Counted from the stretch's first letter, positions 24,997 to 44,009 are shown. The stretch: 64,000 bases of DNA from an uncultured Desulfobacteraceae bacterium (GCA_964459445.1 CAYWMP010000004.1:14469-78468); one strand, 5' to 3'. Notes: a model not told the origin generated them from the sequence alone. Numbers and translations: made by a program.

Positions 24997-26064
24997 ATGG
25001 GCAAGGTTTTAATGAAAGGAAACGAGGCCATTGGCGAAGCTGCAATCAGGGCCGGTTGCTTGAACTATTTTGCATATCCGATAACGCCGCAATCCGAGGT
25101 TGCGGAATACCTGGCCCACCGAATGCCCGAGGTGGGCGGTGTTTTTCTCCAGGGTGAGAGCGAGGTGGCGGTATCCTATATGATTTACGGCGCCGCGGCC
25201 GCCGGCGAAAGAGTCTTTACAACCTCATCCAGCCCGGGCATCAGCCTGATGAGCGAAGGATTCAGTTATATGGCCGGGGGCCAGTGTCCCGTTGTCATCA
25301 TCAATATCATGCGGGGCGGTCCGGGCCTGGGTGGTATTCTGCCCTCCCAGGCGGATTATGCACAGGCAACAAGGGGCATCGGCCATGGCGATTGCAGGTT
25401 GCTGGTCATGGCACCGGCCAGCGTTCAAGAGGCCGTTGAAATGGTGATGTCGGCCTTTCCCCTGTCGGAAAAATACCGCAATCCTGTCATGATACTGGGG
25501 GATGGTCTAATAGGACAGATGATGGAGCCGGTGGAGTTTCCCGAGCACCTGCAAACCGAGCCGGCTAACAAAGACGACTGGGCCACAAACGGCATGGACA
25601 CGCGAAATAGAAAAGAGCGTAATCTTGTGAGGTCGCTCTATTTGGATCCAGCGGCATTGAACGATAATAATTTGGTATTGAAAGAAAAATACGAACAAAT
25701 GAAACGAGAAGAGGTGCAGTACGAATCCTATAACATTGATTCGGATTACAAGATTTTAATCGTGAGTTACGGCACCATGAGCAGGGTTTGTAAGACCGCC
25801 ATCGACAATATGAAAGAGGAAGGCATGGAAGTCGGAATGATTAGACCTCAGTCCCTCTTTCCCTTCCCGGCCGACGGGGTAAAGGAAGCCGCTTCAAAAG
25901 GTGGATGCAAATGTGTTTTGAGCGTAGAGATGAGCATGGGACAGATGGTTGAGGACGTGGAGCGATACGTGATGGGCAGAGTCCCGGTTCACTGGTATGG
26001 GAAATGCGGTGGGGATGTCCCTACGCCGGAAGAAGTTATCGACGAAGTGAAGGCCCTGTGGTAG
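24997..26064 (+). CDS. 2-oxoacid:ferredoxin oxidoreductase alpha subunit (VorB/PorA-like)
   Basis: KGNEAIGEAAIRAG..YPITPQSEV..SSSPGISLM. Confidence 0.85.
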   Translation: MGKVLMKGNEAIGEAAIRAGCLNYFAYPITPQSEVAEYLAHRMPEVGGVFLQGESEVAVSYMIYGAAAAGERVFTTSSSPGISLMSEGFSYMAGGQCPVVIINIMRGGPGLGGILPSQADYAQATRGIGHGDCRLLVMAPASVQEAVEMVMSAFPLSEKYRNPVMILGDGLIGQMMEPVEFPEHLQTEPANKDDWATNGMDTRNRKERNLVRSLYLDPAALNDNNLVLKEKYEQMKREEVQYESYNIDSDYKILIVSYGTMSRVCKTAIDNMKEEGMEVGMIRPQSLFPFPADGVKEAASKGGCKCVLSVEMSMGQMVEDVERYVMGRVPVHWYGKCGGDVPTPEEVIDEVKALW

Positions 26065-26111
26065 AGAGTCAGAAATGGCCGCAATGCGGCATAAAATGAG
26101 GAGCATTTAAC

Positions 26112-26864
26112 ATGGCAAAAGCATTCTGTAAGCCCGAAGCCCTTTCCGATCAACATACCCATTATTGCCCCGGGTGTACCCATGGTATTATTCATCGTCT
26201 GGTTGCCGAAGTGATCGACGAAATGGGTGTTCGCGGCCGCACGGTGGGTATTGCCCCCGTGGGTTGCGCGGTCATTTGCTACAACTATTTTACCTTTGAT
26301 TTCCAGGAAGCGGCCCATGGGCGGGCCCCGGCAGTGGCAACAGGGGTGAAACGAGTCCGCCCGGATCTCATCGTATTCACCTACCAAGGGGACGGCGACC
26401 TGGCAAGTATCGGTATGAGCGAGATCGTTCATGCTGCAAATCGAGGCGAAAAGTTCACCACCATTTTTGTTAATAATGCGGTCTATGGCATGACGGGCGG
26501 CCAAATGGCGCCCACGACCATGCCGGAGCAACGGACGACGACCTCACCTTTCGGCAGAGATGTGGCCGATGTCGGGATGCCGATCAAAGTCGCCGAGCTC
26601 CTCGCGGCCCTTCAAACGCCGGGATACATTACGAGACAGGCGGTTTTGGCGCCCAAGTACGTTGTGAAAACCAAAAAAGCGATAAGGAGAGCCTTCAACT
26701 ATCAGTTGGAAAATCGGTGTTTTAGCATGGTTGAAGTGGTGAGTACATGCCCGACAAATTGGGGTTTGACGCCTTTGGAATCTTTAAAGTGGGCAGAGGA
26801 CAAGATGCTTCCCTACTATGAACTTGGCGACAAAAAGACCCCCGAAGAATTCGAGGAGGCATAG
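26112..26864 (+). CDS. 2-oxoacid:ferredoxin oxidoreductase beta subunit (TPP-binding)
   Basis: YCPGCTHG, GDGDLASIG and MTGGQMAPTT. Confidence 0.85.
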   Translation: MAKAFCKPEALSDQHTHYCPGCTHGIIHRLVAEVIDEMGVRGRTVGIAPVGCAVICYNYFTFDFQEAAHGRAPAVATGVKRVRPDLIVFTYQGDGDLASIGMSEIVHAANRGEKFTTIFVNNAVYGMTGGQMAPTTMPEQRTTTSPFGRDVADVGMPIKVAELLAALQTPGYITRQAVLAPKYVVKTKKAIRRAFNYQLENRCFSMVEVVSTCPTNWGLTPLESLKWAEDKMLPYYELGDKKTPEEFEEA

Positions 26865-26868
26865 GAAA

Positions 26869-27405
26869 ATGCAGTGGGAAGTCATGTTTGCTGGATTTGG
26901 GGGACAGGGAATTCTATTAAGCGGGAAAATTCTTGCCCATGCCGGTATGGAGGAAGGTTATGAAGTAGCCTGGGTTCCCTCCTACGGTCCTGAAATGAGG
27001 GGAGGGACCGCCTATTGTACGGTGGTCATCGGCGACAGGCCTATCGGCTCTCCGATCATAAAGAACCCTATGCATCTCGTGGCCTTGAACCGCCCTTCAT
27101 TGGAGAAATTTGCACCGGTCGTAAAGCAGGATGGGGTTGTGCTTATCAACAGTTCACTCATACCTGTAAAATCCGGGCGCGAGGACGTGGATGAGCTCAT
27201 CGTCCCGGTCACCGAAATTGCTAAAGATTTGGGAAACGTAAGGGCAGCCAATATCGTGGCTCTTGGTGCATTTGTTGCTCGAAGCGAGATCGTTGGTTTT
27301 GATACGTTGCGCAAGTGTGTGGAGGAGGAGTTTTCCCATAAGAAAAAAGTGTTGCCCCTGAATATGGATGCCTTGGATGAGGGGAAAAAAGCGGCCCAAA
27401 GATAA
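26869..27405 (+). CDS. 2-oxoacid:ferredoxin oxidoreductase gamma subunit
   Basis: MQWEVMFAGFGGQGILLSG..YGPEMRGGTAYCTVVIGD. ATG 26869 was chosen over the longer ORF start at 26818. Confidence 0.85.
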   Translation: MQWEVMFAGFGGQGILLSGKILAHAGMEEGYEVAWVPSYGPEMRGGTAYCTVVIGDRPIGSPIIKNPMHLVALNRPSLEKFAPVVKQDGVVLINSSLIPVKSGREDVDELIVPVTEIAKDLGNVRAANIVALGAFVARSEIVGFDTLRKCVEEEFSHKKKVLPLNMDALDEGKKAAQR

Positions 27406-27733
27406 CGTCAGCGTTTGCCTAAACCCCTTTTTAAACCGGGCGATTATTTAGTTTATTCCCTCCTGGCATAAAAGAGATCAACAGCACTTGCCCATCCCCA
27501 AAAGGGTCTGTTTGGACATCAGGGTCTTTTTTCATCTATGCCGCACCACTGCCCCTAAATGGTAAGAATTCTTTTGAAAAATAGAGAATTTCTGGTATGT
27601 TTATGTGCCTTTTTTCCGGGCATTGACCCGCCTGATTGAGTCAATATCGTCCCTCGAGTTTGATCTGAGACACATACCCAACAAAGGGATAAGGTTGAAG
27701 AATTGAAAAGCAAATATAGGCATAGGAGCAAAA

Positions 27734-30505
27734 ATGGATAACGAAAACGTCATGGTTATCGATGGCCACGAACTATCCTTTACACCCGGGGAAACCATCC
27801 TCCAGGTGGCGAAGCGGAACGGAATGGATATTCCCACCCTATGCTACATGAAGGGGGCATCGCCGACCGGAGCTTGCCGGATCTGTGTTGTGGAAGTCGA
27901 GGGCGCCAGAAATCTAGTGGCATCCTGCGTCTCACCGGCGGCAAATAAAATGGCAGTGAAAACAGAAACCTCGCGGGTGGTCCGGGCAAGGAAGGTGACC
28001 TTGGAATTGCTGCTCTCCTCTGGTCAGCACAATTGTCTAGCGCAGGATCTGGATATAGATTCCTGGACCGATTTTCAACTTAAGGCTATGACGGAAAAGG
28101 AACATCAAGACCTTTGTCCCGCCTATGGGGAGTGTACTTTGCAGGATTTGGCTATCCGTTACCAGGTCAGAGCCAAGAAATACACGCCAAAAGAGCCCCG
28201 ATATCCTCTGGAAAATGTAAATCCCCTTATTGTGCGTGATTTTTCCAGATGTGTCCTGTGCGGACGATGTGTTCAGGCCTGCAATGAAATACAGGTGAAC
28301 AACGCCATTAGTTTCGGCTATAGGGGCTCCTCTTCAAAGATCGTGGCCAGGGGTGATTTCTCTCTTAAAGACTCGGACTGCGTGTTTTGCGGCGAATGCA
28401 TTCAGGCCTGCCCCACAGGCGCACTGGTTCCAGTAACGGATTTTCAAAGCGAACAACGAGACCTGGCCAATACAAAAAAGATCCGAACCACCTGTTCCTA
28501 CTGCGGCGTGGGCTGTCAGCTCTATCTCCATGTCAGAGACGGTAGGGTCGTGAAGGCCACGGGCGTGGAGGGCCTTGGGCCCAATTTTGGAAGTCTTTGT
28601 GCAAAGGGGAGATTCGGTAACGATTTCATCCATGATCCTGAAAGGCTTACAAAACCGCTCATTAAGGAAGACGGGGAATTCCGGGAAGCCTCCTGGGATG
28701 AGGCCCTGGATCTCGTTGCCGACAGGTTGAAGGGGATAAAACAGGAGGCGGGACCGGACTCCATCGGGGTTTTATCTAGTGCACGAATAACGAATGAGGA
28801 GAATTATCTGGCGCAGAAATTTACAAGGGCGGTCATTGGAACGAATAATGTGGATCACAGTGCCCGGCTCTGTCACGCCTCGACAGCGGTCGGTCTGGCC
28901 GCAGCATTTGGTAGCGAAGCCATGACAAATCCTATCGAAGATATCGAAAAAGCCGATGTGATCCTGATCACGGGCTCAAATACGACAGAGAACCATCCCG
29001 TATTATCCTCCTATGTAAAACGTGCGGTGACCCAAAAGGGCGCAAAGCTGATCGTTGTTGATCCGAGGAGAATTCCCATAGCGAAATTTTCCGAATACTG
29101 GCTTAGACAAAATCTAGGGACCGACGTGGCTTGGATCAACGGGATGATGCATGTCATTATCAAGGAAGGTCTCTACGACAAGGCGTACGTCGAAACCCGC
29201 ACTGTGGGGTTGGATGAGATCCAAAAAGCGGTTGAGAAATTCACGCCGGAATATGTCGAGAAGATCACCGGGATTCCCCAGGATGATCTCATGGCGGCCG
29301 CACGCCTATACGCGAATGCCAAAGCCGCCTCCATTCTCTTCGCCATGGGCATAACCCAACATATTACAGGAACGGACAACGTCAAGTCCCTTGCCAATCT
29401 GGCCATGCTTTGCGGAAATGTGGGCAAGAAAGGCGGCGGCGTCAATCCCCTTCGCGGCCAGAATAACGATCAGGGCGCCTGCGATATGGGCGCTTTACCC
29501 AATGTATATACAGGCTATCAAAAGGTTGTTGATTCCGCCGTTGCAGAGCGTATGGCAAGTTCATGGGGTGTCGAGAAACTTTCTGAAGAACCCGGACTTA
29601 CCGCGACCGAGATGATGGAGCAGATCCCGAAAGGGGGCATCAAGGCCATGTACATTATCGGAGCAAATCCCATGGTCTCGGACCCCAACCTGCATCACAC
29701 AAAGGAGGCTATCGAACAGCTGGATTTCCTGGTCGTCCAGGATATATTCCTGACAGAGACGGCACGGTTGGCGGATGTGATCTTGCCGTCGGCTTCCTTT
29801 GCAGAGAAAGAAGGAACCTTTACAAATACCGAGAGGAAGGTGCAGCGCGTCCGCAAGGCGGTGGCGCCGCCCGGTGAGGCCCGGGAGGATTGGGAGATCA
29901 TCGGCGATTTGTCAAGGCGCATGGGCTATCCCGTGGAATATGGGAACAGCCGGGATATTATGAAGGAGATTGCGGAGGTGACGCCCTCCTACTGCGGGCT
30001 AAATTACGATCGATTGCAGCAGGACGGGATCCATTGGCCCTGTACGGGCACCGATCATCCCGGTACGCCCTGTCTTCATATGGATCAGTTCACCTGCGGG
30101 CTGGGCGTATTCCATGCCATTGATTATGTTCCTCCAGCGGAAGTGCCGGATGATGAATACCCCCTCTACCTTACGACCGGCCGAATCCTCTATCAGTACC
30201 ACACGGGGACCATGACCATGAAATCCGAAGGCCTCAACGCGTTGGCCCCGGAGTGCTTTATCGAGATCTCATCCCAGGATGCAGATGACTACAATATTAA
30301 GGAGAACGAACCGATAAAAATTGCTTCCCGGAGAGGAGAGATCACCGCCAAGGCCAAGATATCGACAAAGGCTGTAAAAGGTACGGTGTTCTTACCTTTT
30401 CATTACGCGGCCGCCGCCAATACTCTGACGATTTCCGCTCTCGACCCCACATCCAAAATACCCGAATTCAAGGTGTGCGCGGTTCGGATTGAAAAGGCGG
30501 CATGA
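27734..30505 (+). CDS. fdhA: Formate dehydrogenase catalytic subunit (Mo/W-bisPGD) with an N-terminal NuoG-like Fe-S module; Cys-type active site
   Basis: N-terminal [2Fe-2S] CRICVVEV, CVLCGRCVQAC, CVFCGECIQACP, CSYCGVGC, and VDHSARLCHAST (Cys codon 28871-28873 where Sec-type enzymes have U). Confidence 0.85.
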   Translation: MDNENVMVIDGHELSFTPGETILQVAKRNGMDIPTLCYMKGASPTGACRICVVEVEGARNLVASCVSPAANKMAVKTETSRVVRARKVTLELLLSSGQHNCLAQDLDIDSWTDFQLKAMTEKEHQDLCPAYGECTLQDLAIRYQVRAKKYTPKEPRYPLENVNPLIVRDFSRCVLCGRCVQACNEIQVNNAISFGYRGSSSKIVARGDFSLKDSDCVFCGECIQACPTGALVPVTDFQSEQRDLANTKKIRTTCSYCGVGCQLYLHVRDGRVVKATGVEGLGPNFGSLCAKGRFGNDFIHDPERLTKPLIKEDGEFREASWDEALDLVADRLKGIKQEAGPDSIGVLSSARITNEENYLAQKFTRAVIGTNNVDHSARLCHASTAVGLAAAFGSEAMTNPIEDIEKADVILITGSNTTENHPVLSSYVKRAVTQKGAKLIVVDPRRIPIAKFSEYWLRQNLGTDVAWINGMMHVIIKEGLYDKAYVETRTVGLDEIQKAVEKFTPEYVEKITGIPQDDLMAAARLYANAKAASILFAMGITQHITGTDNVKSLANLAMLCGNVGKKGGGVNPLRGQNNDQGACDMGALPNVYTGYQKVVDSAVAERMASSWGVEKLSEEPGLTATEMMEQIPKGGIKAMYIIGANPMVSDPNLHHTKEAIEQLDFLVVQDIFLTETARLADVILPSASFAEKEGTFTNTERKVQRVRKAVAPPGEAREDWEIIGDLSRRMGYPVEYGNSRDIMKEIAEVTPSYCGLNYDRLQQDGIHWPCTGTDHPGTPCLHMDQFTCGLGVFHAIDYVPPAEVPDDEYPLYLTTGRILYQYHTGTMTMKSEGLNALAPECFIEISSQDADDYNIKENEPIKIASRRGEITAKAKISTKAVKGTVFLPFHYAAAANTLTISALDPTSKIPEFKVCAVRIEKAA

Positions 30506-30573
30506 GGAATGGACGACGCAGCATTCAATGATAAATGACTCATGACAGATGACAATAGTAAGGAGATGAAACC

Positions 30574-31074
30574 ATGCACCAGGCCAGGAATCTTGAAGCG
30601 ATAAATCCAGACCTCACCCCGGAGATCATGGCTAAGATAAATGACATCATCCGTGTCCATCGGGGCAAGCCGGGGAGCCTTATCCCGGTTTTAGAGGAGT
30701 GCCAGGGTATAACGGGTTATCTTCCGGTAGAGCTCCAGGAATACATCGCGGATGAGCTGAATATCCCAGGCAGCACCGTTTATGGCGTCGTCACCTTCTA
30801 CTCCTTTTTTTCAATGGTACCGAAAGGGCGACATACGATAAAGGTCTGTATGGGGACGGCCTGCTATGTGAGAGGAATCGGAGAGGTATTGAATCGCCTG
30901 CAAACGACCTATCACCTGGATGTCGGGGCCACGAGTGATGACCGGAGGTTCTCCCTTGAGGCCGTTCGGTGCCTCGGCGCCTGTGGCTTGGCCCCGGTAG
31001 TGGTGGTGGGTGAAGACACCCACGGTGGCGTAACGCCGGACAGCGTTTTAAAGATTCTGGAGAAATACGAATAA
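30574..31074 (+). CDS. NuoE/HndA-like thioredoxin-fold [2Fe-2S] subunit
   Basis: ..VCMGTACYVRG..CLGACGLAPVVVV. Confidence 0.85.
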   Translation: MHQARNLEAINPDLTPEIMAKINDIIRVHRGKPGSLIPVLEECQGITGYLPVELQEYIADELNIPGSTVYGVVTFYSFFSMVPKGRHTIKVCMGTACYVRGIGEVLNRLQTTYHLDVGATSDDRRFSLEAVRCLGACGLAPVVVVGEDTHGGVTPDSVLKILEKYE

Positions 31075-31125
31075 TTCGAATAATCCAAAATGGGGTGAGT
31101 TCCCCCATATCTATTAGGGATTGAA

Positions 31126-31485
31126 ATGAAATTATCCGAAATAAAAGAAGCACTCAAAGCAGAGATAGTTTTTGGCGATGACAGTCAGGAGATCGACATA
31201 GAACGCGGAGCGGCAAGTGATCTGATGAGCGATTTGCTAAGGGGACCTACAGACGGTGTTTTGGTTCTGTCGGGTCTCAACAATCTTCAGACCATTCGCA
31301 CTTCGGTTATCGCAGGTGTTGCTGCGGTTGTCTTTGTAAGAGGGAAACGGCCTGATGAAGATATGATTGCTCAAGCAAGAAAGCACGGGCTACCGCTTTT
31401 GTCTACGCCCTTTACAATGTTCACCGCCTGCGGCCGGGTGTTCGGCAAGGGTCTACGGGGCGTGGATCAAAAAAACTCCGGCTAA
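31126..31485 (+). CDS. DRTGG domain protein (1)
   Basis: LVLSGLNNLQTIRTSVIAGVAAVVFVRGKRPDEDMI..GLPLL resembles the DRTGG domain pattern. Confidence 0.6.
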   Translation: MKLSEIKEALKAEIVFGDDSQEIDIERGAASDLMSDLLRGPTDGVLVLSGLNNLQTIRTSVIAGVAAVVFVRGKRPDEDMIAQARKHGLPLLSTPFTMFTACGRVFGKGLRGVDQKNSG

Positions 31486-31546
31486 ATCCATACCCCTGTT
31501 TCACCGACAGACAAAAACATAAGGGCAAAACCGACGAGGCGTTGAT

Positions 31547-31981
31547 GTGCCCCATCTCTTAAAAAACTTTAATATTAAACCAAAGGATTTTATCAGGGCC
31601 GGGGAAGTGTCCCTTCAGGTACAGAGCGTCCTGAAGACGATTGGCTTTGAAGCGGATATCATCAGACGAGTTTCAGTATGCGCCTATGAAGCGGAAATGA
31701 ATGTGGTCATGCATGGTGGAAACGGCAATCTCTTTCTCATCGTGGATCCGGACTCGATCATCATGGAGGTGAAGGACGATGGTCCGGGCATCAAAGATAT
31801 CGACCTGGCTCTAAAGGAAGGCTGGTCTACAGCAGTACCTGAACAAAGGGAATTGGGTTTCGGGGCCGGCATGGGTCTCCCCAACATAAAAAAGAACGCC
31901 GATAAATTGGAAATTCAGTCCAATGAAGACGGGGGCACCCATCTAAAACTGCTATTCAAGGTGGATAATACCGGTGGCTAA
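31547..31981 (+). CDS. Histidine-kinase-like ATPase (RsbW/anti-sigma-type Ser kinase-like)
   Basis: EAEMNVVMHG (N box), DDGPGI (G1) and GFGAGMGLPNI (G2). Confidence 0.65.
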   Translation: MPHLLKNFNIKPKDFIRAGEVSLQVQSVLKTIGFEADIIRRVSVCAYEAEMNVVMHGGNGNLFLIVDPDSIIMEVKDDGPGIKDIDLALKEGWSTAVPEQRELGFGAGMGLPNIKKNADKLEIQSNEDGGTHLKLLFKVDNTGG

Positions 31982-33269
31982 AGGTTCCAAGAAAGGCAAA
32001 ACACCCCATTACGTTAAAATTAATGAAGAGCTATGCAATGGCTGTGTATTGTGCATGAAGGTGTGTCCCGCGAAGGCGATTCGCGTAAAGGCCAATGAGC
32101 TTGCGCGCATTGAAGGAGAATGCATCGATTGCGGGGAATGCATCAAGGCCTGTCCCAGAGGCGCGATCAAGGCCGTTACAACGGTTGATTCCGGCAGATT
32201 AGACAAGTCCAAGGCCATCGTCGGGGTCTCCCCTGTCCTTTTCACTCAATTCGGGGAAGATGTTACCCCGGATGACGTTATATCGGCGCTCAAGCGTTTG
32301 GGATTCTTGGATGTCTATGATCAAAGCGATGCCCTTGAGATGTTTAACATGGCGGTCGGTCTCTATATCGAGGAGAGCAAAAATAAACCGGCCGCGCCCA
32401 GGCCCCTCATTTCGCCGGTCTGCCCGGTCGTCACGAGGCTCATTGCCCAGCGTTTCCCGTCACTATTGAGTCATATACCCCCTCTTTTGACTCCTCGTGA
32501 ATTGGCTGCAAGGGAAGCCAAGCGGCGGGCGATCCAGGAATATGGACTAAAGGAGAACGAGCTTAAGGTGTACCATATCACGCCATGCTCGGCAAAAATG
32601 ATTGCCATTAAGAACCCCATACTGGTGGATCAGTCTTATCTGGACGGCGCCATAGGTATTAAAGATATATACGAACCGCTTTTGGGAGAGCTCAAGTCCA
32701 TGAATCTTTCCAAGAGATCAAATCATCCCATCAGGGCGATCATCGGATGGGCCAGATCAGGTGGCGAAATCGCCGGTATGGAGGGCGGCAACTTCTTGGG
32801 GGTATCGGGTATGCAAGAGACCATACGATACCTTGAAAAGATCGAAATGGGATTGCTTGATGATATTGATTACGTCGAGTTCAGGGTCACTCCTGAAGGA
32901 TGCATCGGCGGCGCCTTGACGGTTACGGACAAATACCAGGCAAAGCACACCATATCGAGGTTGACTCAGAAATATGGTTTGGAGAAGAAGGTCAAAACGG
33001 ATTACGTAAAAGAACAGTACGATAAGGGCTGGTTCTTCTTCCAGGGTGGGGTGAAGATGCCGCCAAAGAGTTCAGATATATCGCTATCTGAGGCCATCGA
33101 AAGGCAGCTGAAGGTCGAAGAAGTCAAGGAAATGCTGCCTGGAAAGGAATGCGGAATCTGCGGATGCCCGGACTGCCAGACCTTTGCCGAAGATGTCGCA
33201 GACGGCAGAGTGTTCGTGGAGCAGTGCATACTCCTGGATCGTGAAAAGGGGAAAGGAGAAAACAAGTGA
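31974..33269 (+). CDS. [FeFe]-hydrogenase-like Fe-S protein with degenerate H-cluster motifs and a C-terminal CGxCGxxxC domain (putative sensor)
   Basis: CNGCVLCMKVCP and CIDCGECIKACP. H-domain motif equivalents: SPVCPVV (versus TSCCP), TPCSAKM (versus MPCxxK), EFRVTPEGCIGG (versus ExMxCxxGCxxGG). C-terminal CGICGCPDCQ. Confidence 0.6.
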   Translation: MAKGSKKGKTPHYVKINEELCNGCVLCMKVCPAKAIRVKANELARIEGECIDCGECIKACPRGAIKAVTTVDSGRLDKSKAIVGVSPVLFTQFGEDVTPDDVISALKRLGFLDVYDQSDALEMFNMAVGLYIEESKNKPAAPRPLISPVCPVVTRLIAQRFPSLLSHIPPLLTPRELAAREAKRRAIQEYGLKENELKVYHITPCSAKMIAIKNPILVDQSYLDGAIGIKDIYEPLLGELKSMNLSKRSNHPIRAIIGWARSGGEIAGMEGGNFLGVSGMQETIRYLEKIEMGLLDDIDYVEFRVTPEGCIGGALTVTDKYQAKHTISRLTQKYGLEKKVKTDYVKEQYDKGWFFFQGGVKMPPKSSDISLSEAIERQLKVEEVKEMLPGKECGICGCPDCQTFAEDVADGRVFVEQCILLDREKGKGENK

Positions 33270-33613
33270 AGTTGGATGATGTGAGGAACGCCCTCAATCT
33301 CGAAGTGGCGGCCGGTGACAAATATCTTGATCGGGAAATAACCGGAGGCTATTGCGGGGATCTCCTGAGTGATGTGATGGCGAATTCACCGGACGGCGCC
33401 CTCTGGATGACAATCCAATCGCATCAGAACATTGTGGCCGTTTCAGTGCTGAGAGAGCATGGCGCCATTGTCCTAGTGAATGGGCGGGTTCCCGACGATG
33501 ATACAAAGGCCAAGGCTGAGGAAGAAGGCATTCCCATACTGCTTTCTCCCTTGTCGGGCTATGAACTGGCGGGGCGGCTCTATGAAATGGGGATTGGCAA
33601 GACGAAAGAGTGA
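33266..33613 (+). CDS. DRTGG domain protein (2)
   Basis: Paralog of 31126-31485: CGDLLSDVM..WMTIQSHQNIVAVSVLREHGAIVLVNGRVPDDD..GIPIL. Confidence 0.6.
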   Translation: MKLDDVRNALNLEVAAGDKYLDREITGGYCGDLLSDVMANSPDGALWMTIQSHQNIVAVSVLREHGAIVLVNGRVPDDDTKAKAEEEGIPILLSPLSGYELAGRLYEMGIGKTKE

Positions 33614-34344
33614 GACAATTTAAGGCCGATTTGCATATTCATTCCTGTCTGTCGCCCTGTGCGGATCTTGATATGAGCCCGAGGGCCATTGTAGAAAAGA
33701 GCCTGGAAATGGGAATGGATATCATCGCTGTTTGTGATCACAATTCCGCCGAAAACGTGGGTGCGACCATAAGGGCGGGTGTTCAGAACGGGCTGTTCGT
33801 ATTGCCGGGCATTGAAATCAATAGCAAAGAGGAAGTCCACACCCTAGCGATTTTTGAGAACGAAAAGCAGGCCTTGTCCATGCAAGACATCATTTATCGC
33901 CACCTCAAAGGCATCAATAGGCCGGAAATTTTTGGGGAGCAGGTGGTCGCTAATGAGTTTGATGAGGTCGAAGGGTTTAATGATCGGATGTTGATCGGAT
34001 CATCGCAACTGGGGTTGCAGGAGGTCGTCAAGGAGGTTCGGCGTCTTGGGGGCCTGAGCATCGCATGCCACGTGGACCGTCCGAGTTTTAGTATTGTGAC
34101 GCAATTGGGATTTATCCCTCCGGACTTGGGGCTGGACGCCCTTGAAGTCTCTCGATCTGAAAAATTAGAGAGAATTCGTGAAGAGGTGCCTGAAGCAAAC
34201 AACCTTGCCATGATAGTCTCTTCAGACGCGCATTTTCTCGATGACCTTGGGCGCCAATTTACAACCTTTGCCATAGAAAGCCCCAGTTGGGACGAGATGC
34301 GCAAGGCCTTTAGGTCGGAATCGGGAAGGAAGGTTAGAATTTAG
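33610..34344 (+). CDS. PHP-domain phosphoesterase
   Basis: ADLHIHSCLSPCA..IIAVCDHNS..SSDAH metal-binding pattern. Confidence 0.7.
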   Translation: MRQFKADLHIHSCLSPCADLDMSPRAIVEKSLEMGMDIIAVCDHNSAENVGATIRAGVQNGLFVLPGIEINSKEEVHTLAIFENEKQALSMQDIIYRHLKGINRPEIFGEQVVANEFDEVEGFNDRMLIGSSQLGLQEVVKEVRRLGGLSIACHVDRPSFSIVTQLGFIPPDLGLDALEVSRSEKLERIREEVPEANNLAMIVSSDAHFLDDLGRQFTTFAIESPSWDEMRKAFRSESGRKVRI

Positions 34345-34360
34345 GGGCTTCGCCCCAATT

Positions 34361-34510
34361 GGAATGTTGGATGACTGGAATGATGGAAAAATGGGTTCAG
34401 GGAAAATGGGCAAATAGGTAGCTGGTTGAATTACTATGGATAAGGAAGTCATAAGCATTAAAAAGGGCATACTTCCTTAAAAAACCATCATTCCATTATT
34501 CCACCATTCC
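34361..34510. repeat. Stutter-word hairpin (ggaatg/cattcc words) inside the fdh-nuoF operon
   Basis: 34361-34386 pairs with 34485-34510 (22 of 26 positions; a perfect 10-bp core at 34377-34386/34485-34494). Inner 8-bp hairpin at 34442-34449/34471-34478. Confidence 0.7.
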
Positions 34511-34594
34511 ATAATTCCATGTTTGAGGCAAAAACACTTGGCCTCGTTAATTGCTTATAAGTTCAAAAAGTTGCAGAAATAGCGAGACGGTTAA

Positions 34595-35170
34595 TTGAGG
34601 GAAGTATCCCTTCACATAATGGACATCATCGAGAACGGCATCAATGCAGGGGCAACACTTATCCATTTGACCGTTATCGAAACCAGGAAAAATAACCGGT
34701 TATATGTGACCATAAAAGATGACGGGCAGGGGCTTTCGGACGAAAAACTTCAGGAGGTCATGGATCCTTTTTATACAACGCGTACAACACGGCGTGTCGG
34801 ACTCGGGCTTTCTTTATTTCGGGAAACGAGCAGACGATGTGAAGGAACCTTTGATATCAAATCCAGGGAAGGGGAGGGGACCGAAGTCTTCGTGTCATTT
34901 CAACTCGACCACATTGATCTTCCGCCTCTTGGCGATATGGCTGGATCAATGGTTAGTCTTATCGTGGGGAATCCGGAGGTGGATTTCGTCTACACCCATG
35001 AGGTGGAGGAAGATACCTTTGATTTGGATACGAGAGATGTAAAAGGCGAACTCGATGAAGTGCCGATAACCCATCCGGAAGTCATAAAGTACTTAACCGA
35101 GACAACGCGTGAGTCTTTGAAAAAAATTGGGGCAGGGAATTTCGCAGCGTCTATTAACAGCCCAAAATAG
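34595..35170 (+). CDS. Histidine-kinase-like ATPase domain protein (2)
   Basis: IIENGINAGA, DDGQGL and TRRVGLGLSLF. Start is uncertain (TTG 34595 or ATG 34619). Confidence 0.6.
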   Translation: MREVSLHIMDIIENGINAGATLIHLTVIETRKNNRLYVTIKDDGQGLSDEKLQEVMDPFYTTRTTRRVGLGLSLFRETSRRCEGTFDIKSREGEGTEVFVSFQLDHIDLPPLGDMAGSMVSLIVGNPEVDFVYTHEVEEDTFDLDTRDVKGELDEVPITHPEVIKYLTETTRESLKKIGAGNFAASINSPK

Positions 35171-35215
35171 AAACTCGGGTTTGCCCGCTTTTGGCAGGGA
35201 CAAGGAGGAAGTCGG

Positions 35216-35587
35216 ATGGCTAAACTGACAATTGGCGATCTTAAAAAAATCAAGGAAAACGCACAAAAGGCAACAGCCCTAAGAGAGGGCGAGGCTACGG
35301 TCAAAATTACGGTCCACATGGGAACCTGCGGCATAGCGGCAGGGGGAAGAGAGGTGATGGATGTCCTATTGGAAGAGCTGGCGGAGTCGGAACGCCAGGA
35401 TATCAGGGTTGTCACCTCCGGGTGTATGGGCATGTGCAGCAGCGAGCCAAACGTCACCGTGGAAATCAAAGACCATGCGCCGGTCATCTATCAACTTATG
35501 GACAAAAACAAGATGCGACAGGTGTTCAAACGACATGTCATGATTGGAGAGGTCCAGAGCGATTTTGCCCTGGCCAGAATGACCTAG
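35216..35587 (+). CDS. Thioredoxin-like [2Fe-2S] ferredoxin (HndB-like)
   Basis: VHMGTCGIAAGG..SGCMGMCSSEPNV. Confidence 0.75.
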   Translation: MAKLTIGDLKKIKENAQKATALREGEATVKITVHMGTCGIAAGGREVMDVLLEELAESERQDIRVVTSGCMGMCSSEPNVTVEIKDHAPVIYQLMDKNKMRQVFKRHVMIGEVQSDFALARMT

Positions 35588-35714
35588 AACCGGTTTCAGA
35601 AAAGAATTTGACCGGATAACAGGATAGACCAAATATGGGGACCCATGGGTCTGGTTCTTAATGTTGGAGAGAGAAAGGTCGAATTCAAACGTAAGGGCAG
35701 GGATCGGTTCTAAG

Positions 35715-35754
35715 CGATCAACAGGATAAAAAAATCAAATCAATCCTGTTATCG
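35715..35754 (+). repeat. Hairpin in the hndB-like/nuoF spacer (aacaggat word)
   Basis: cgat(c)aacaggat-N15-atcctgttatcg: 12 bp with one bulge. The word aacaggat also occurs near 35620. Confidence 0.6.
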
Positions 35755-35826
35755 TGTCGAAAAATATCTGAACTGTTATGGATATGCAGCATTGAAAGAC
35801 TGGCGGAGGAATGAGGAGGCCATAGA

Positions 35827-37614
35827 ATGAGCACGTTCCGAACTGATTTGCTTATTTGCGGAGGGACAGGTTGTCACGCGTCGGGAAGTCAAGGGGTAAA
35901 GGAATCCCTTGAAAAGGAGCTTGTCCAACGGGATCTCCAACGTGAGATTCGGGTGGTTGAAACCGGTTGCAATGGTTTTTGCGCACAGGGACCCATCATG
36001 ATCGTCCAACCCGAAGGCATCTTCTATCAAAAACTCAAACCAAAAGACATTCCACATTTGGTTGAAGAGCATTTTCTTAAGGGACGACCGGTGAAGAAGC
36101 TTTTCTATAAGGAACCGGCTTCAGCGGAGAGCATCCCGGGAATGGATGATATACCCTTCTATGCCAAACAGCAGTTGATCGTGTTGAAAAATAGGGGAGT
36201 GATTGATCCGGAGAGTATTGACGAGTATATCGGTCGGGACGGTTATATGGGATTGGGCAAGGCACTCCTGGAAATGAAACCGCAGGAGATCATTGAAGAG
36301 ATGAAAAAATCCGGTCTTCGAGGCCGGGGAGGCGCCGGATTCCCGACAGGCCTGAAGTGGGAATTCGCCAGCAAGGCGACCGGAGATATGAAATACGTGC
36401 TTTGCAATGCCGATGAAGGAGATCCGGGGGCGTTCATGGATAGAAGCGTCCTTGAAGCGGATCCCCACGCCGTGCTTGAAGGGATGGTCATCGCCGCAAG
36501 GGCCATCGGCGCCAAGCAGGGCTATATCTACTGCAGGGCCGAATATCCATTGGCCCTGAGAAGACTCGATATTGCGATTGACAAGGCCAGGGAATACGGG
36601 CTCTTGGGCGAAGATATCCTAGGCAGTGGTTTTGATTTCGATCTGGAAGTATATCAGGGGGCGGGCGCATTTGTATGCGGCGAGGAAACGGCCCTCATTC
36701 ACTCCATCGAAGGAAAACGGGGCATGCCCCGGCCGAGACCGCCATTTCCGGCACAACAGGGCCTCTGGAAAAAACCGACGGTACTGAACAACGTGGAAAC
36801 CTACGCCAATGTCGCCCAGATCATGATAAACGGGGGCGACTGGTACGGGAGCATAGGAACGGAATCGAGCAAGGGCACAAAAGTATTTGCACTCACAGGG
36901 GCCGTAAACAACATCGGTCTTGTGGAAGTGCCCATGGGAACCACCCTCAGGACCATCATCTATGATGTAGGAGGCGGTGTTCCCAATAAGCGAAAATTCA
37001 AGGCTGTCCAATTGGGCGGTCCCTCAGGGGGATGTGTGCCAGAGCAATTTCTGGATACGCCCATCGATTATGAGTCCATAGCCAAGGTGGGGGCCATCAT
37101 GGGATCGGGGGGTATGATTGTCATGGACGATCGCACCTGCATGGTGGATATGGCGCGTTTCTTCATGGATTTCATCCAGGACGAATCCTGCGGCAAATGC
37201 ACGCCGTGCCGGGAAGGGACGGGACGCATGCTCGAGCTCGTTGAGAAGATCACTCGCGGCGAAGGAGAGCCGGAAGACATCGAAAGCCTAGAGGCGTTAA
37301 GCGATGTTATCAGCGATGCCGCCCTATGCGCCCTGGGCGGAACCGGGCCAAATCCGGTCCTATCCACCCTGCGCTATTTTAAGGATGAATACATGGCCCA
37401 CATCCATGAAAAAAGATGCCCTGCCAAACGCTGCCCATCCCTGCTTGATTTTGTGGTAGGCGAGGACAGGTGCAAAAAGTGCGGCCTGTGCTATAAAGCC
37501 TGTCCCGTGGAGGCTATCCAATGGCAAAAGAAAGAGACGGCTTACATAGACAAAAATAAATGCATCAAGTGCCTGAGTTGTTTCTCAACCTGTCCCTTTG
37601 ATGCGATCGATTAA
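35827..37614 (+). CDS. NuoF/HndC-like NAD(P)H-binding FMN flavoprotein with N-terminal [2Fe-2S] and C-terminal 2x[4Fe-4S]
   Basis: GRGGAGFPTGLKW, CNADEGDPGAF, ESCGKCTPCREG, CKKCGLCYKACP and CIKCLSCFSTCP. Confidence 0.9.
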   Translation: MSTFRTDLLICGGTGCHASGSQGVKESLEKELVQRDLQREIRVVETGCNGFCAQGPIMIVQPEGIFYQKLKPKDIPHLVEEHFLKGRPVKKLFYKEPASAESIPGMDDIPFYAKQQLIVLKNRGVIDPESIDEYIGRDGYMGLGKALLEMKPQEIIEEMKKSGLRGRGGAGFPTGLKWEFASKATGDMKYVLCNADEGDPGAFMDRSVLEADPHAVLEGMVIAARAIGAKQGYIYCRAEYPLALRRLDIAIDKAREYGLLGEDILGSGFDFDLEVYQGAGAFVCGEETALIHSIEGKRGMPRPRPPFPAQQGLWKKPTVLNNVETYANVAQIMINGGDWYGSIGTESSKGTKVFALTGAVNNIGLVEVPMGTTLRTIIYDVGGGVPNKRKFKAVQLGGPSGGCVPEQFLDTPIDYESIAKVGAIMGSGGMIVMDDRTCMVDMARFFMDFIQDESCGKCTPCREGTGRMLELVEKITRGEGEPEDIESLEALSDVISDAALCALGGTGPNPVLSTLRYFKDEYMAHIHEKRCPAKRCPSLLDFVVGEDRCKKCGLCYKACPVEAIQWQKKETAYIDKNKCIKCLSCFSTCPFDAID

Positions 37615-37723
37615 CAGACCGTCGAAAAATGTCCACTTTTTTGCTAAGGCGGGATATTTGGAGGAGTATAGGGTTGGTGTAAGGCTCAGCGTATAAGGCG
37701 CGAGGCGTATTCCTCTGTATTCG

Positions 37724-37752
37724 TTGACAATCATTTGAAATCAATATAGAAA
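37724..37752 (+). promoter_or_regulatory. Candidate sigma70 promoter upstream of the FecR-domain gene
   Basis: Perfect TTGACA at 37724-37729, then TATAGA/TAGAAA 15-17 nt downstream. Confidence 0.35.
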
Positions 37753-37826
37753 CCAGGCACCCGTAAATGGTTATAGTCCCTGTGATTGGAGCCTCAAAGC
37801 GGATCAAAATCGTCGGATGAATCGAA

Positions 37827-39779
37827 ATGTTTAAAAATGCTCTTGCATACATAACTCTATTCCTCTGTTTCTTTCTCCTTGTGATTCCGGGCACCCTATT
37901 GGCCCAAGCAAACCGAGGGGTGGCCGTGCCTGTTAAAGACCTTCCTGATGAACTAAAGAATCTCGATATTAAAGATCATTTTATGCCTTCCACTCTCAAA
38001 AGAGTCGGTGTTATCCATGCCCTTAACGGCCGGGTTGTCGTCATCCACAGGATCTCAAAACAAGCCTATTTCGGAATGGCGGGAGACGCTATTTATGAAA
38101 ACGACGCCATCACAACACTTCGAAATTCCAAGTGCCGAATCCGATTCGCAGATGAAGACGTCGTCACCCTGGCCTCTCAAACCAATCTCAATGTGGAAGA
38201 ATTTCGAGATCAGAGGGGGGAAGGGAAAAAGACCTCTCTATTGAGCATGGCAAAGGGCAAGGCCATGTTTTACGCCCTCCGGCTGTTCAGCTATAAGGAG
38301 ACTCGATTCAGGGTCAGGACCCCCACGACCGTTGTTGGTGTAAGGGGAACCAAATTCGGTACACATGTCTATTGGATAGAAGGGGATCAGGCCACTCGTA
38401 ATAATCTGAAGGTCGCCGATCTCGGAAAAGGATTGGGACATTATCTGACCCAGGTCAGCCCCGAAGCCCAAGGAAAGAGCTATACGGATGCCTTCTCAGA
38501 GGACGGCTTCCTGGATGTGGAGGGCAAAGTCGTCGGTCCGGGAGAGATTTATCGGGGTGATACAGGACAGATTACACTCACACCTCCTGAATATATCAGC
38601 GCCTTCGAAGAGGAGACCGAGGTAAAGAAAGAAGAAGAAAAGGTCGGCGAAGAGGAAGCCAAGGAAGAAGAAAAAGAGGCCGAAAAAGAAGCTGAGAAAG
38701 AAGGGGAGGGCGAGGAAGCCGACGATGAAACCACGGAAGAAGTAGCTACTGATGATACTGGGGAAACCACTACTACGGATATCGCCGATATAAGCGAAAA
38801 TCTATCGGACACGACGCAACAGGAAATCGCGACAACGACCGAAACTGAAAACGTTGCGGCTGCCGCAACGGGATCTCAGGCAGTTGTAGGGGGCGGAATC
38901 CTTGCAGTGGGCAAGACTGCGGGAGAGGTAAGCGCCATTGCTACAATCATATTGTTGAATAGCGCAACCGGGGAGGCCAAGAAAAACACATCTCCCGCCA
39001 AGGATCCCATATATATTTCCGAAGATCATAACCACCTCATAGGAGGTGCGGAAACCCATATTGCCTATGAAGTTGGACATCAGAACGATCCGAATTTCAT
39101 CATGAAAGTCCAGGAGGAATCCGCCGCGAGTATGGATGCCAAGGTGACGGATGTCCGCTGGGGAAGTCCATCCAACCAGGCCATTGGTTCGCCCCATTCC
39201 TTTACATGGACCCAGGCCGGGCAATATACTGATGCAAATGGAAGTGAATACCTTCGTTGGGGATTTTGGGAAGACCTTAACGCCAACCCAGGGCTCATCG
39301 GAAATGACGGAAATGATTTCTATGCCGCCACCGCGAAGATTTGGGAGGTGGAAGGGGACCTCACGCATCCGGATATCATTTCAGCTCTACAACAACAGGG
39401 AACGGTGTATACCTATAAGGGAGAGGCCAAAGGCGTTTATGCCGACAGTTCTGCCGCTGACACCGCGAATTTGACCGGCGATTTTTCCTGTTCGGTAGAC
39501 TTTGGGAATACCCAAGTCTCAGACTTTACAATTGACGTAGACGATGGGGCGGGCGGCCATGCAGTCAACCTATCAGGGGGCAGCGGAAGTCTTAATTCAG
39601 AAGGGGGTTTCAATATAGACAACTTCAGTGGAACGATCAATGGATCAACCATCCCATCCGGCGATAGCCTAGCCAGCGGAGGATTGGTAGGCGGTAAGGC
39701 TGAGGGTGTGGGCGGCGTGTGGGCAGCCCATGATGGCAATGATAAGTGGGCAACCGGTGAATTCCACGGAAAGAGATAA
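37827..39779 (+). CDS. Secreted FecR-domain protein with an acidic E/K-rich linker and a C-terminal TbpB-like beta-barrel domain
   Basis: Signal peptide ..LLAQA. FecR pattern DAIYENDAITT..IRFADEDVVTL..FRVRTPTTVVGVRGTKF. EEEKVGEEEAKEEEKEAEKEAEKE linker. C-terminal GGLVGGKAEGVGGVWAA....ATGEFHGKR. Confidence 0.6.
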   Translation: MFKNALAYITLFLCFFLLVIPGTLLAQANRGVAVPVKDLPDELKNLDIKDHFMPSTLKRVGVIHALNGRVVVIHRISKQAYFGMAGDAIYENDAITTLRNSKCRIRFADEDVVTLASQTNLNVEEFRDQRGEGKKTSLLSMAKGKAMFYALRLFSYKETRFRVRTPTTVVGVRGTKFGTHVYWIEGDQATRNNLKVADLGKGLGHYLTQVSPEAQGKSYTDAFSEDGFLDVEGKVVGPGEIYRGDTGQITLTPPEYISAFEEETEVKKEEEKVGEEEAKEEEKEAEKEAEKEGEGEEADDETTEEVATDDTGETTTTDIADISENLSDTTQQEIATTTETENVAAAATGSQAVVGGGILAVGKTAGEVSAIATIILLNSATGEAKKNTSPAKDPIYISEDHNHLIGGAETHIAYEVGHQNDPNFIMKVQEESAASMDAKVTDVRWGSPSNQAIGSPHSFTWTQAGQYTDANGSEYLRWGFWEDLNANPGLIGNDGNDFYAATAKIWEVEGDLTHPDIISALQQQGTVYTYKGEAKGVYADSSAADTANLTGDFSCSVDFGNTQVSDFTIDVDDGAGGHAVNLSGGSGSLNSEGGFNIDNFSGTINGSTIPSGDSLASGGLVGGKAEGVGGVWAAHDGNDKWATGEFHGKR

Positions 39780-39805
39780 AAGACGGTCAAAAAAGGGTAA
39801 TAGGT

Positions 39806-40192
39806 ATGGACATAAAAAATGAACGGGTAGTGGCATACGGTATTGCGGTCGTTTTGTTTGTTGTCGGCGTGGTCTGTTACGCAGGCTTTCCGCCGGAGCC
39901 GCCGGAGGAGCCCATCAGGATCTATTTCACGAGTACCGCGGGGAATTTACTCTTTGACCATAAGGAACACACCTCGGAAGAGGGATATGGCTTTGATTGT
40001 GCTGAATGCCATCATAAGTGGGAGCAGGAAGAAGGCACCAAGCCCGAGGCATGTGGTAAATGTCATTTGGTTGAAAGTGAGAAGGAGGACGTACCAAAAC
40101 GGACCGACTCCTTTCACCAGCAATGCAAAGGGTGCCATGAGGAGGCTGAGGAGGGACCCATCGATTGTTTTGAATGCCATTTCAGCGGCTAA
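39806..40192 (+). CDS. Membrane-anchored tetraheme cytochrome c (c3 family)
   Basis: N-terminal TM helix and four CxxCH motifs: CAECH, CGKCH, CKGCH, CFECH. Confidence 0.85.
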   Translation: MDIKNERVVAYGIAVVLFVVGVVCYAGFPPEPPEEPIRIYFTSTAGNLLFDHKEHTSEEGYGFDCAECHHKWEQEEGTKPEACGKCHLVESEKEDVPKRTDSFHQQCKGCHEEAEEGPIDCFECHFSG

Positions 40193-40277
40193 ACCTTCCG
40201 CTACATGAATCAGGACAAACAGGCGCTATCTTGAATTGGATAGCGTAAATGTGAACGGTATAAAAGGAAGTGGAAGG

Positions 40278-43345: not shown

Positions 43346-43359
43346 GGAGATAAAGGAAT

Positions 43360-43971: not shown

Positions 43972-44009
43972 GCACGATATTTTCTAGCGACAGGATAAGG
44001 AGATATTAA

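Follow-up and report, generated by a model that had tools for sequence, protein, structure and literature searches.

A group D [FeFe]-hydrogenase homolog and its conserved two-part partner set within a formate dehydrogenase operon of an uncultured Desulfobacteraceae bacterium

A stretch of 64,000 nucleotides from an uncultured Desulfobacteraceae bacterium (GCA_964459445.1 CAYWMP010000004.1:14469-78468; the window from here on) carries six genes between nuoE and hndB/nuoF of a formate dehydrogenase operon. They encode two DRTGG-domain proteins (DRTGG1 and DRTGG2), two GHKL-type ATPases (HATP1 and HATP2), a PHP-family phosphoesterase (PHP), and a homolog of [FeFe]-hydrogenases (HydS). An earlier reading of the DNA (the original prediction) had placed a six-gene sensor/regulator set here, and its coordinates, its domain assignments, and its choice of a formate dehydrogenase as the catalytic partner were confirmed. 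We found that HydS belongs to group D of the [FeFe]-hydrogenases, that it is accompanied across distant phyla by the same partner genes in two sub-modules, and that the neighboring catalytic enzyme varies while a NuoE-NuoF-type flavin module stays constant. We give even chances to the proposal that the six genes form a HydS-centered signaling module that senses reducing pressure and tunes the NuoE-HndB-NuoF flavin module.

The original prediction had called HydS a hydrogenase-like Fe-S protein. It is indeed a hydrogenase homolog, but not an anonymous one, since by sequence it is a member of the characterized group D (M2e, TamHydS-type) family. HydS has 431 residues and aligned with TamHydS from Thermoanaerobacter mathranii at 36% identity over 418 aa (251 bits, E 8e-84), compared to only 42-63 bits for solved group A enzymes. 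For this comparison, TamHydS was reconstructed from the supplementary coding sequence of Schumann et al. 2026 (PMC13104023), and a database protein is 99% identical to the reconstruction. Pfam matches to HydS comprised PF02906 (Fe_hyd_lg_C, 78.6 bits) and two Fer4-family domains. The published plan of M2e/group D consists of two N-terminal clusters, an H-domain, a Cx2Cx4Cx16C motif, no PAS domain, no C299, and Ser/Thr in place of Met353 (PMC8163306), and TamHydS and the window protein share every one of these features. In the latter, the N-terminal [4Fe-4S] motifs (C21, C24, C27, C31 and C50, C53, C56, C60) are invariant in the alignment, the H-domain reads SPV149-C150-P, T203-P-C205-xx-K208, and E-F-R304-V-T306-P-E-G-C310, and C393, C396, C401, and C418 make up the C-terminal motif, which is matched by PF04060. 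No PAS domain was detected by Pfam. Alignment to HDCR HydA2 and TamHydS placed V149 at the proton-transfer Cys299 and T203 at Met353.

The fold and phylogeny agreed with this assignment. An AlphaFold2 (AF2) model of HydS (pLDDT 80.3) returned [FeFe]-hydrogenases as all 50 of its top 50 PDB matches (TMq 0.56-0.67). In a neighbor-joining tree of HydS-like proteins, with two HydA (A3) sequences as the only outgroup, the HydS-like proteins formed one clade far from HydA. Firmicutes group D proteins shared one branch with those of WOR-3 and Gemmatimonadota, and a large Desulfobacterota-dominated clade that includes the window was its sister. The nearest HydS homologs of the window organism are only 62% identical to its own, and none of the 70 group D proteins in the published list is from Desulfobacterota. 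Group C and D enzymes are slow, have high affinity, and have been proposed to be H2 sensors (PMC8163306; PMC13104023; PMC10055695). A sensory role for the Firmicutes versions was proposed earlier from the proximity of kinase genes (Carere 2012 PMC3561251; Land 2020 PMC8163306), while group D is listed as functionally undefined in a current compilation (PMC11216029) and its signal route is explicitly described as unknown (PMC8163306; PMC13104023).

To place the six genes in context, a scan of a genome collection yielded 293 relatives, of which the 80 best loci were mapped by BLASTP with the window proteins. The gene immediately upstream of HydS was HATP1 in 74 of the 79 loci that could be evaluated, and HATP1 was in turn preceded by DRTGG1 in 69/74. 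On the other side of HydS, DRTGG2 followed directly in 47 of 76 loci, with PHP downstream in 45/69 and HATP2 in 41/64. Where at least 8 kb was available on both sides (n=29), NuoF was present in 25 loci, NuoE in 23, FdhA in 19, and Rnf in 8. These counts uphold the earlier claim that the set is a conserved unit tied to NuoE/NuoF-type enzymes. The further claim that it also stands beside NADH-dependent (bifurcating) [FeFe]-hydrogenase operons in Firmicutes was borne out as well. Four of five other contexts had the order DRTGG-HATPase_c_2-HydS-DRTGG-PHP-NuoE-HATPase_c-HndB-like-NuoF-HydA, and these HydA-linked contexts came from Thermoanaerobacter, Caldicellulosiruptor bescii, Coprothermobacter, and a single metagenomic contig. 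The Thermoanaerobacter locus encodes a HydS 96% identical to TamHydS, which itself lies upstream of a bifurcating HydABC. Thus the same six accessory genes adjoin a NuoE/HndB/NuoF-type module in the same order in Firmicutes, although HydS is only 36% identical; the differences are that the window has formate dehydrogenase (and Rnf) as the partner, not HydA, and that nuoE precedes the set in the window, whereas in Firmicutes it lies between PHP and HATP2.

The stretch occurs in seawater metagenomes, no RNA run was found to contain it, and a comparison of metagenome contigs with the window from nuoE to nuoF gave 23 synonymous and 5 non-synonymous strain single-nucleotide polymorphisms, so these are live genes under purifying selection. 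Together with the HATP1 and DRTGG1 adjacency counts and the gene order kept in distant Firmicutes, this ratio argues that the arrangement is not due to chance.

The loci differed in how the set is divided. About 20 had the exact window order, FdhA-NuoE-DRTGG1-HATP1-HydS-DRTGG2-PHP-HATP2-HndB-NuoF, and in many of these, cytochrome c3 and Rnf genes came next. In about seven loci (arrangement B), the order was FdhA::NuoE-DRTGG2-PHP-HATP2-HndB-NuoF-DRTGG1-HATP1-HydS, and in about eight (L016, L019, L022, L026, L037, L039, L042, and L044), DRTGG1-HATP1-HydS stood alone directly upstream of cytochrome c3-RnfCD. A further locus, L048, is missing the DRTGG2-PHP-HATP2 block and keeps FdhA-NuoE-HndB-NuoF. 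The set is therefore made of two sub-modules, a sensor triad, DRTGG1-HATP1-HydS, and a block, DRTGG2-PHP-HATP2(-HndB), that stays with HndB-NuoF; the HndB-like gene always comes after HATP2.

The catalytic partner varies between HydA, FdhA with selenocysteine (Sec) or Cys, NuoF::GltD with a GltB-like protein, NfnAB-like proteins, and Rnf, and NuoEF is the constant. In WOR-3, the partner genes encode a NuoF::GltD fusion with HoxU-like and GltB-like proteins; HydA was considered as the catalytic partner there and rejected on these grounds, and the encoded complex is Stn/Nfn-like, not a hydrogenase or a formate dehydrogenase. A Gemmatimonadota metagenome-assembled genome (MAG) has an NfnAB-like fusion as the partner. 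NuoF proteins of ~1010-1030 aa are NuoF::GltD fusions (Fer4_20 + Pyr_redox_2) in L005, L008, L014, L021, L043, L063, L075, and others. The original prediction had named sets apart from redox enzymes as evidence that would count against it, and such sets are rare yet real: the triad occurs by itself in L084, a Peptococcaceae MAG, and L002 has the six genes with NuoEF not nearby. In L053, a lone HydS without kinase or DRTGG partners directly follows a Rex-type regulator (Put_DNA-bind_N + CoA_binding; 9044-9817).

The proteins encoded around HydS offer candidate signaling parts. HATP1, a protein of 144 aa, conserves E48/N52/H56 of the N box as well as the DDGPG and GFGAGMG motifs (G1 and G2), and the only PDB entries related to it by sequence are those of SpoIIAB, a Ser kinase/anti-sigma factor (E ~1e-3). 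The set resembles the SpoIIAB/RsbW-SpoIIAA/RsbV-SpoIIE/RsbU systems in having a GHKL protein of ~145 aa with intact ATP boxes next to genes for a small alpha/beta protein and a phosphoesterase. Unlike those systems, it is without a STAS protein, a PP2C phosphatase, and a sigma factor, in the operon as in related loci, and the set was for this reason rejected as a member of the canonical SpoIIAB/RsbW partner-switching systems; the original prediction had offered partner switching as one mechanism.

DRTGG2 has no Pfam match of its own, yet it is a paralog of DRTGG1 (32% identity over 110 aa, E 1e-22), and its orthologs match PF07085. The two proteins have a D-L-(M/L)-S35-D motif in common: in DRTGG1 it reads D32-L-M-S35-D36, with at least 95% conservation among 72 orthologs, and in DRTGG2, Y29, D32, L33, S35, and V37 reach the same level. 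This conservation makes Ser35 a candidate phosphorylation site. The eponymous D-R-T-G-G stretch presumably corresponds to SGLNN...VRGKRP in DRTGG1 and QSHQN...VNGRVP in DRTGG2, by a tentative mapping to the Pfam consensus. A sequence search of the PDB with the DRTGG proteins gave insignificant matches only, and in the literature that we searched, DRTGG is known just as a domain of CBS-pyrophosphatases and of phosphotransacetylases, with no study of a stand-alone DRTGG protein found.

PHP matched PF02811 (32.4 bits) and PF13263 (34.6 bits), and its metal motifs, H9-x-H11 and a C-terminal SDAH, are conserved in 53 orthologs. HATP2 consists of a GHKL ATP-binding domain (residues 1-105) and an alpha/beta domain of ~85 aa, with an invariant H106-I-D108 at the junction. 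Its start was taken as the TTG at 34595, and the conserved N-terminus SLHI supports this start over the 183-aa gene call. Neither Pfam nor the model (pLDDT 87.6) revealed a HisKA/DHp domain in HATP2, and His106 follows the CA domain, which is a different context. A histidine kinase was accordingly rejected as an identity for HATP2, because there is no DHp domain and its full-length fold matches are GHL ATPases. The pairing of kinase-like proteins with a phosphoesterase, another element of the original prediction, stands only in part: HATP1 is SpoIIAB-like, but a GHL-type ATPase with a second domain describes the HATP2 model better than a kinase does, and the nearest solved relatives of PHP do not include protein phosphatases.

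NuoF contains an N-terminal [2Fe-2S] domain, a flavin mononucleotide (FMN)/NADH site, an SLBB domain, a [4Fe-4S] domain, and a C-terminal 2x[4Fe-4S] ferredoxin domain, and the architectures of NuoF and NuoE are identical to those of HydB and HydC beside HydA in L081 and L082. By these architectures, NuoE-HndB-NuoF is a HydBC-type flavin module that serves FdhA and may be electron-bifurcating.

We hypothesize that the six-gene module responds to H2, to the redox state of the ferredoxin/NADH pool, or to both; a sensor of reducing pressure would suit enzymes that keep formate, NADH, and ferredoxin in balance. HydS would change its conformation with the redox or H2 state, and the translationally coupled, SpoIIAB-like HATP1 together with DRTGG1 (sub-module 1) would read this shift. 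The signal would then pass to sub-module 2, comprising DRTGG2, PHP as a resetting enzyme, and the GHKL/GHL-like HATP2, which is genetically locked to HndB-NuoF and would act on HndB-NuoF or on its expression. We infer this chain, from HydS through HATP1/DRTGG and DRTGG/PHP/HATP2 to HndB-NuoF, from synteny and domain content, and with it regulation as such, DRTGG phosphorylation as the currency, and the enzyme rather than the promoter as the target. Action on the enzyme complex and not on transcription is likewise a proposal; the original prediction had suggested that the complex is acted on. Sub-module 2 remains fixed beside HndB-NuoF even though the triad relocates in arrangement B, which makes a protein-level target the easier explanation, and DNA-binding genes are not conserved in the cluster.

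The last point bears on a purely transcriptional output, in which H2 or redox state would be sensed by the set and passed to an unlinked DNA-binding regulator or sigma factor that controls expression of the operon. The SpoIIAB-like nature of HATP1 would suit such a route, an AraC-type regulator flanks TamHydS (PMC8163306), L053 pairs HydS with Rex, and the HydS systems of group C are assumed to control the expression of hydrogenase genes (PMC8924675; PMC10055695). However, no regulator or sigma factor was conserved across ~85 neighborhoods, nor was any HTH, receiver, STAS, or PP2C gene in any arrangement, the set has no STAS antagonist, and sub-module 2 stays by HndB-NuoF when the triad is elsewhere. 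We consider a transcriptional output unlikely. Similarly improbable, in our estimate, is a bolder form of the protein-level reading, in which the DRTGG proteins would be the switch or phospho-acceptors of an undescribed cross-phylum system in which an Fe-S sensor of hydrogenase origin works with a SpoIIAB-like kinase, a GHL-type ATPase, and a PHP phosphatase to gate bifurcating NuoEF/HydBC modules post-translationally, with the sensor re-tooled from H2 to Fe-S redox state in Desulfobacterota. If true, such gating would cover whichever enzyme is served, be it a hydrogenase, a formate dehydrogenase, a Nfn/Stn-like complex, or an Rnf-linked enzyme.

Several observations weigh against the HydS-centered signaling module, both in its partners and in HydS itself. 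Although SpoIIAB (TIGR01925) is the best NCBIfam match of HATP1, the score was 43 bits against a cut-off of 135. Ser35 of the DRTGG proteins may be conserved for the structure of the fold and not as a phosphorylation site. The nearest solved relatives of PHP are EndoQ, RNase AM, and the putative phosphoesterase 3e0f, which act on nucleic acids or nucleotides, and no protein phosphatase is among them. Full-length PDB matches to the HATP2 model were the GHL proteins MutL, PMS2, MLH1, and Topo VI-B (TMq 0.45-0.53), whereas the match to histidine-kinase CA domains was limited to ~100 columns. The set has no STAS, PP2C, HisKA, receiver, or HTH domain, and an established signaling chain could not be traced in it. 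The C-terminal cluster of TamHydS was reported to be unresponsive to H2 (PMC13104023). Finally, two repeat-bearing gaps of ~240-250 nt in the operon could split the transcript.

The active-site pocket of HydS adds to these points. At the positions of CpI A230-P231-S232, Firmicutes group D proteins have A-P-S/T and the Desulfobacterota clade has S-(T/P)-V. Of the 67 clade members, 55 carry Val at S232, as does the window protein; this changes a residue that contacts the CN ligands by hydrogen bonding. K358 is kept in 17/17 Firmicutes group D proteins and in only 43/67 of the Desulfobacterota clade, although the window protein retains it. The M497 position is Arg in all 67 proteins of the clade, and variable in Firmicutes (Leu in 12/17). 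At the C499 position, Cys is found in 17/17 Firmicutes group D and 66/67 Desulfobacterota-clade sequences (window excluded), while the window has Thr306, a residue present there in only 2 of 82 sequences (the window and L009). Of the four H-cluster cysteines (C300, C355, C499, and C503), which bind the [4Fe-4S]H subcluster and link it to [2Fe]H, the window copy therefore keeps three, as C150, C205, and C310. Relative to TamHydS, the pocket of the window protein is remodeled at three positions, S232 (Val), M497 (Arg), and C499 (Thr). In TmHydS, the residue equivalent to M497 tunes the potential of [4Fe-4S]H, and the Cys ligands, like the hydrogen-bonding partners of the CN ligands, are otherwise conserved in sensory hydrogenases (PMC10055695).

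The pocket changes and Thr306 call H-cluster assembly into question for the Desulfobacterota clade, and especially for the window copy. The gene is not decaying, as strain differences inside HydS comprised four synonymous changes and one non-synonymous change. Because the [4Fe-4S]H cysteine is lost and the pocket is remodeled, Fe-S redox sensing is somewhat likelier than H2 sensing in the window copy; within a regulatory reading, we place the former a little short of an even chance, and regard true H2 sensing as possible but doubtful.

The same residues speak to whether HydS could be a second catalytic subunit that shares NuoEF/HndB with FdhA, giving a soluble enzyme similar to formate-hydrogen lyase or to H2-dependent CO2 reductase (HDCR). 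The gene for HydS is embedded in the structural operon, the protein conserves a 2x[4Fe-4S] relay at its N-terminus, TamHydS reversibly interconverts H+ and H2, albeit slowly (PMC8163306), and complexes of formate dehydrogenase and hydrogenase exist, among them HDCR (PDB 7qv7), which HydS matched. The window protein, however, has Thr306 in place of one [4Fe-4S]H ligand, Val149 in place of the proton-transfer Cys, and no equivalent of S232. Group D enzymes are slow (PMC8163306), and the Firmicutes operons already contain a bona fide HydA. A catalytic role would also leave the constant kinase-like, DRTGG, and PHP flanks unexplained. We judge it very unlikely.

A degenerate pocket is also seen in scaffold-like hydrogenase relatives, and the six genes might instead form an assembly or maturation factory, in which GHKL chaperones or clamps, DRTGG proteins, PHP, and HydS would load FMN or Fe-S clusters or assemble NuoE-HndB-NuoF, with no signaling involved. 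This would suit a set that is tied to NuoEF/HndB regardless of the catalytic subunit and lacks an output domain, and a HATP2 whose model matches the GHL clamp ATPases MutL and Topo VI-B over its full length. Yet many operons of the HydABC/NuoEF type work without the six genes, L048 keeps FdhA-NuoE-HndB-NuoF without DRTGG2-PHP-HATP2, the triad is found away from NuoEF in L084 and L002, TamHydS is H2-reactive and functional (PMC8163306), and the lone HydS of L053 is paired with a Rex-type regulator. Taken with these points, an assembly role appears quite unlikely to us.

The layout of the operon is relevant to the HydS-centered signaling module. The ten genes from fdhA to nuoF are all on the + strand (Table 1), most of them preceded by Shine-Dalgarno-like sequences. 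Start and stop codons overlap between HATP1 and HydS (31974/31981, 8 nt), HydS and DRTGG2 (33266/33269), and DRTGG2 and PHP (33610/33613; 4 nt each), which couples these four genes. The co-orientation and overlaps that were originally described for the six-gene set are thus present, but the set is not seamless, with one insert between PHP and HATP2 and, beyond the set, another between HndB and NuoF. Across 27300-40600, promoter-like sites (11 vs 13.5 expected) and terminator-like sites (17 vs 14.2 expected) were at background. The evidence for probable co-transcription of fdhA to nuoF consists of the overlaps and the synteny.

Table 1. Features of the formate dehydrogenase operon and its downstream neighbor, with positions counted from the first nucleotide of the window.
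Feature	Position	Strand	Basis
FdhA, catalytic subunit	27734-30505	+	TIGR01591 885 bits (cut-off 666)
NuoE/HydC-like thioredoxin-like [2Fe-2S] subunit	30574-31074	+	PF01257 162 bits; best NCBIfam HoxE/NuoE
DRTGG1, stand-alone DRTGG-domain protein, opens sub-module 1	31126-31485	+	PF07085 28.1 bits (cut-off 25.2)
HATP1, HATPase_c_2, SpoIIAB/RsbW-type single-domain GHKL, putative Ser/Thr kinase	31547-31981	+	PF13581 42 bits
HydS-like group D (M2e) [FeFe]-hydrogenase homolog, presumed sensor	31974-33269	+	2x Fer4, Fe_hyd_lg_C, PF04060
DRTGG2, DRTGG1 paralog, opens sub-module 2	33266-33613	+	BLASTP vs DRTGG1; own sequence without Pfam match
PHP-family metal-dependent phosphoesterase	33610-34344	+	PF02811 + PF13263 (PHP + PHP_C)
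Non-coding insert, 250 nt, between PHP and HATP2	34345-34594		27-nt inverted-repeat arms 34360-34386, 34485-34511
HATP2, GHKL ATP-binding domain + alpha/beta domain	34595-35170	+	PF02518 (HATPase_c) 60 bits
HndB/HydD-like small thioredoxin-like ferredoxin	35216-35587	+	PF01257 19.6 bits, below cut-off; synteny
Second non-coding insert, 239 nt, between HndB and NuoF	35588-35826		22-nt inverted-repeat arms 35607-35628, 35740-35761
NuoF/HydB-like flavoprotein	35827-37614	+	Complex1_51K 165 bits, NADH_4Fe-4S 115 bits, Fer4 x2, 2Fe-2S_thioredx
Cytochrome c3 + RnfCDGEA + RnfB::GltD-like fusion, downstream neighbor	39806-46803	+	Pfam

The inverted-repeat arms of the two inserts enclose loops of ~100 nt, and both inserts folded more stably than shuffled sequences (z -2.5 and -2.8). 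Metagenome depth over the inserts was 2-5x higher (~2.4x for the second), and contigs broke there in four marine runs. Relatives are without the inserts, and their PHP and HATP2 genes adjoin. A riboswitch or attenuator was considered for both and rejected, because neither intergenic insert had an Rfam match and both behaved as multi-copy inverted repeats. They look like dispersed repeats of the miniature inverted-repeat transposable element (MITE) or repetitive extragenic palindromic (REP) kind, outside the conserved module.

The N-terminus of FdhA is HydA/NuoG-like, with 2Fe-2S and 4Fe-4S clusters, and is followed by the molybdopterin formate dehydrogenase domain (Pfam Fer2_4, NADH-G_4Fe-4S_3, Fer4_7, Molybdopterin, and Molydop_binding). 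FdhA is of the Cys type: Cys380 is encoded by TGT at 28871-28873, where 20 relatives have an in-frame TGA for Sec (DHCARL*HSSTVA). Within 28868-28926, a sub-threshold Rfam match to SECIS_3, a selenocysteine insertion sequence (SECIS) family, starts at the Cys380 codon with 31.2 bits against a gathering threshold of 63 (E 0.0011), and resembles a SECIS remnant that persisted after Sec was replaced by Cys. The HndB-like ferredoxin has three cysteines only (C38, C70, and C74), along with His35-Met36 that is at least 95% conserved in 50 orthologs; a [2Fe-2S] cluster with 3Cys/1His ligation is conceivable, as is the lack of any cluster.

Downstream, a 650-aa FecR-domain protein (37827-39779) lies between nuoF and cytochrome c3 and had no BLASTP counterpart in 82 related loci, and the rnfCDGEA cluster ends with an RnfB::GltD/NfnB-like fusion of 692 aa (44725-46803; PF04060 + Fer4 + Fer4_20 + Pyr_redox_2). 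Elsewhere, the window encodes an HdrA-like flavoprotein, an HdrB/C-like CCG protein, and an MvhD(FlpD)-ferredoxin fusion (9-8802), two sets of 2-oxoacid:ferredoxin oxidoreductase genes (9343-11334, - strand; 24997-27405, + strand), an ADP-forming acetyl-CoA synthetase (13427-15574), and, on the - strand, two cyclic di-GMP-type proteins, GGDEF-receiver-HD-GYP (60077-61591) and PAS-GGDEF (61909-63921).

The locus has relatives among other hydrogenase and formate dehydrogenase systems. The group C (M2f) sets include T. maritima HydS, Thermoanaerobacterium HfsABCD, and R. albus HydS, and come with an RsbW-like Ser/Thr kinase, PP2C, and Rex. Like the window set, they combine a hydrogenase-derived sensor that has a C-terminal [4Fe-4S] cluster with a small anti-sigma-type kinase and a phosphatase beside a bifurcating hydrogenase, and their signaling route is likewise unsolved. 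They differ in their fused PAS domain and PP2C phosphatase, where the window has no PAS domain, a PHP phosphoesterase, two DRTGG proteins, and a second GHKL ATPase. The clostridial HylABC-FdhF2 is an NAD(+)/ferredoxin-linked formate dehydrogenase with HydBC/NuoEF-type subunits, which the window enzyme resembles in the HydA/NuoG-like N-terminus of FdhA, the NuoE-like subunit, and the HydB-like NuoF with C-terminal 2x[4Fe-4S]. To our knowledge, operons of this type have not been described with an embedded HydS/DRTGG/PHP/GHKL set. For group C, a sensory role has been put forward (PMC8924675; PMC10055695).

In line with the original prediction, these gene sets have no assigned mechanism in the literature that we searched, and our literature searches (DRTGG + hydrogenase, M2e/group D + formate dehydrogenase, and Firmicutes locus tags) found no study of the function of the accessory genes. 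In the literature we found, the full partner set with its two sub-modules, its coupling to formate dehydrogenase, Rnf, and Nfn-like modules in Desulfobacterota, WOR-3, and Gemmatimonadota, and the clade-specific changes in the HydS pocket all appear to be undescribed. The window locus is a new host and a new enzyme partner, not a new kind of system.

Collectively, these findings show that the sensor family keeps the same two-part set of partners in distant phyla. Since its constant neighbor is the NuoE-HndB-NuoF flavin module and not a hydrogenase, we predict that the flavin module is the target. The partner set supplies concrete candidates for the missing signaling chain of group D, which offers no PAS domain, and the invariant Arg at M497 and the loss of a cluster Cys are natural variants with which to test what the sensor senses. 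The family is extended to marine Desulfobacterota, where it is tied to formate dehydrogenase and Rnf, enzymes that set the balance of formate, H2, NADH, and ferredoxin in sulfate reducers and syntrophs.

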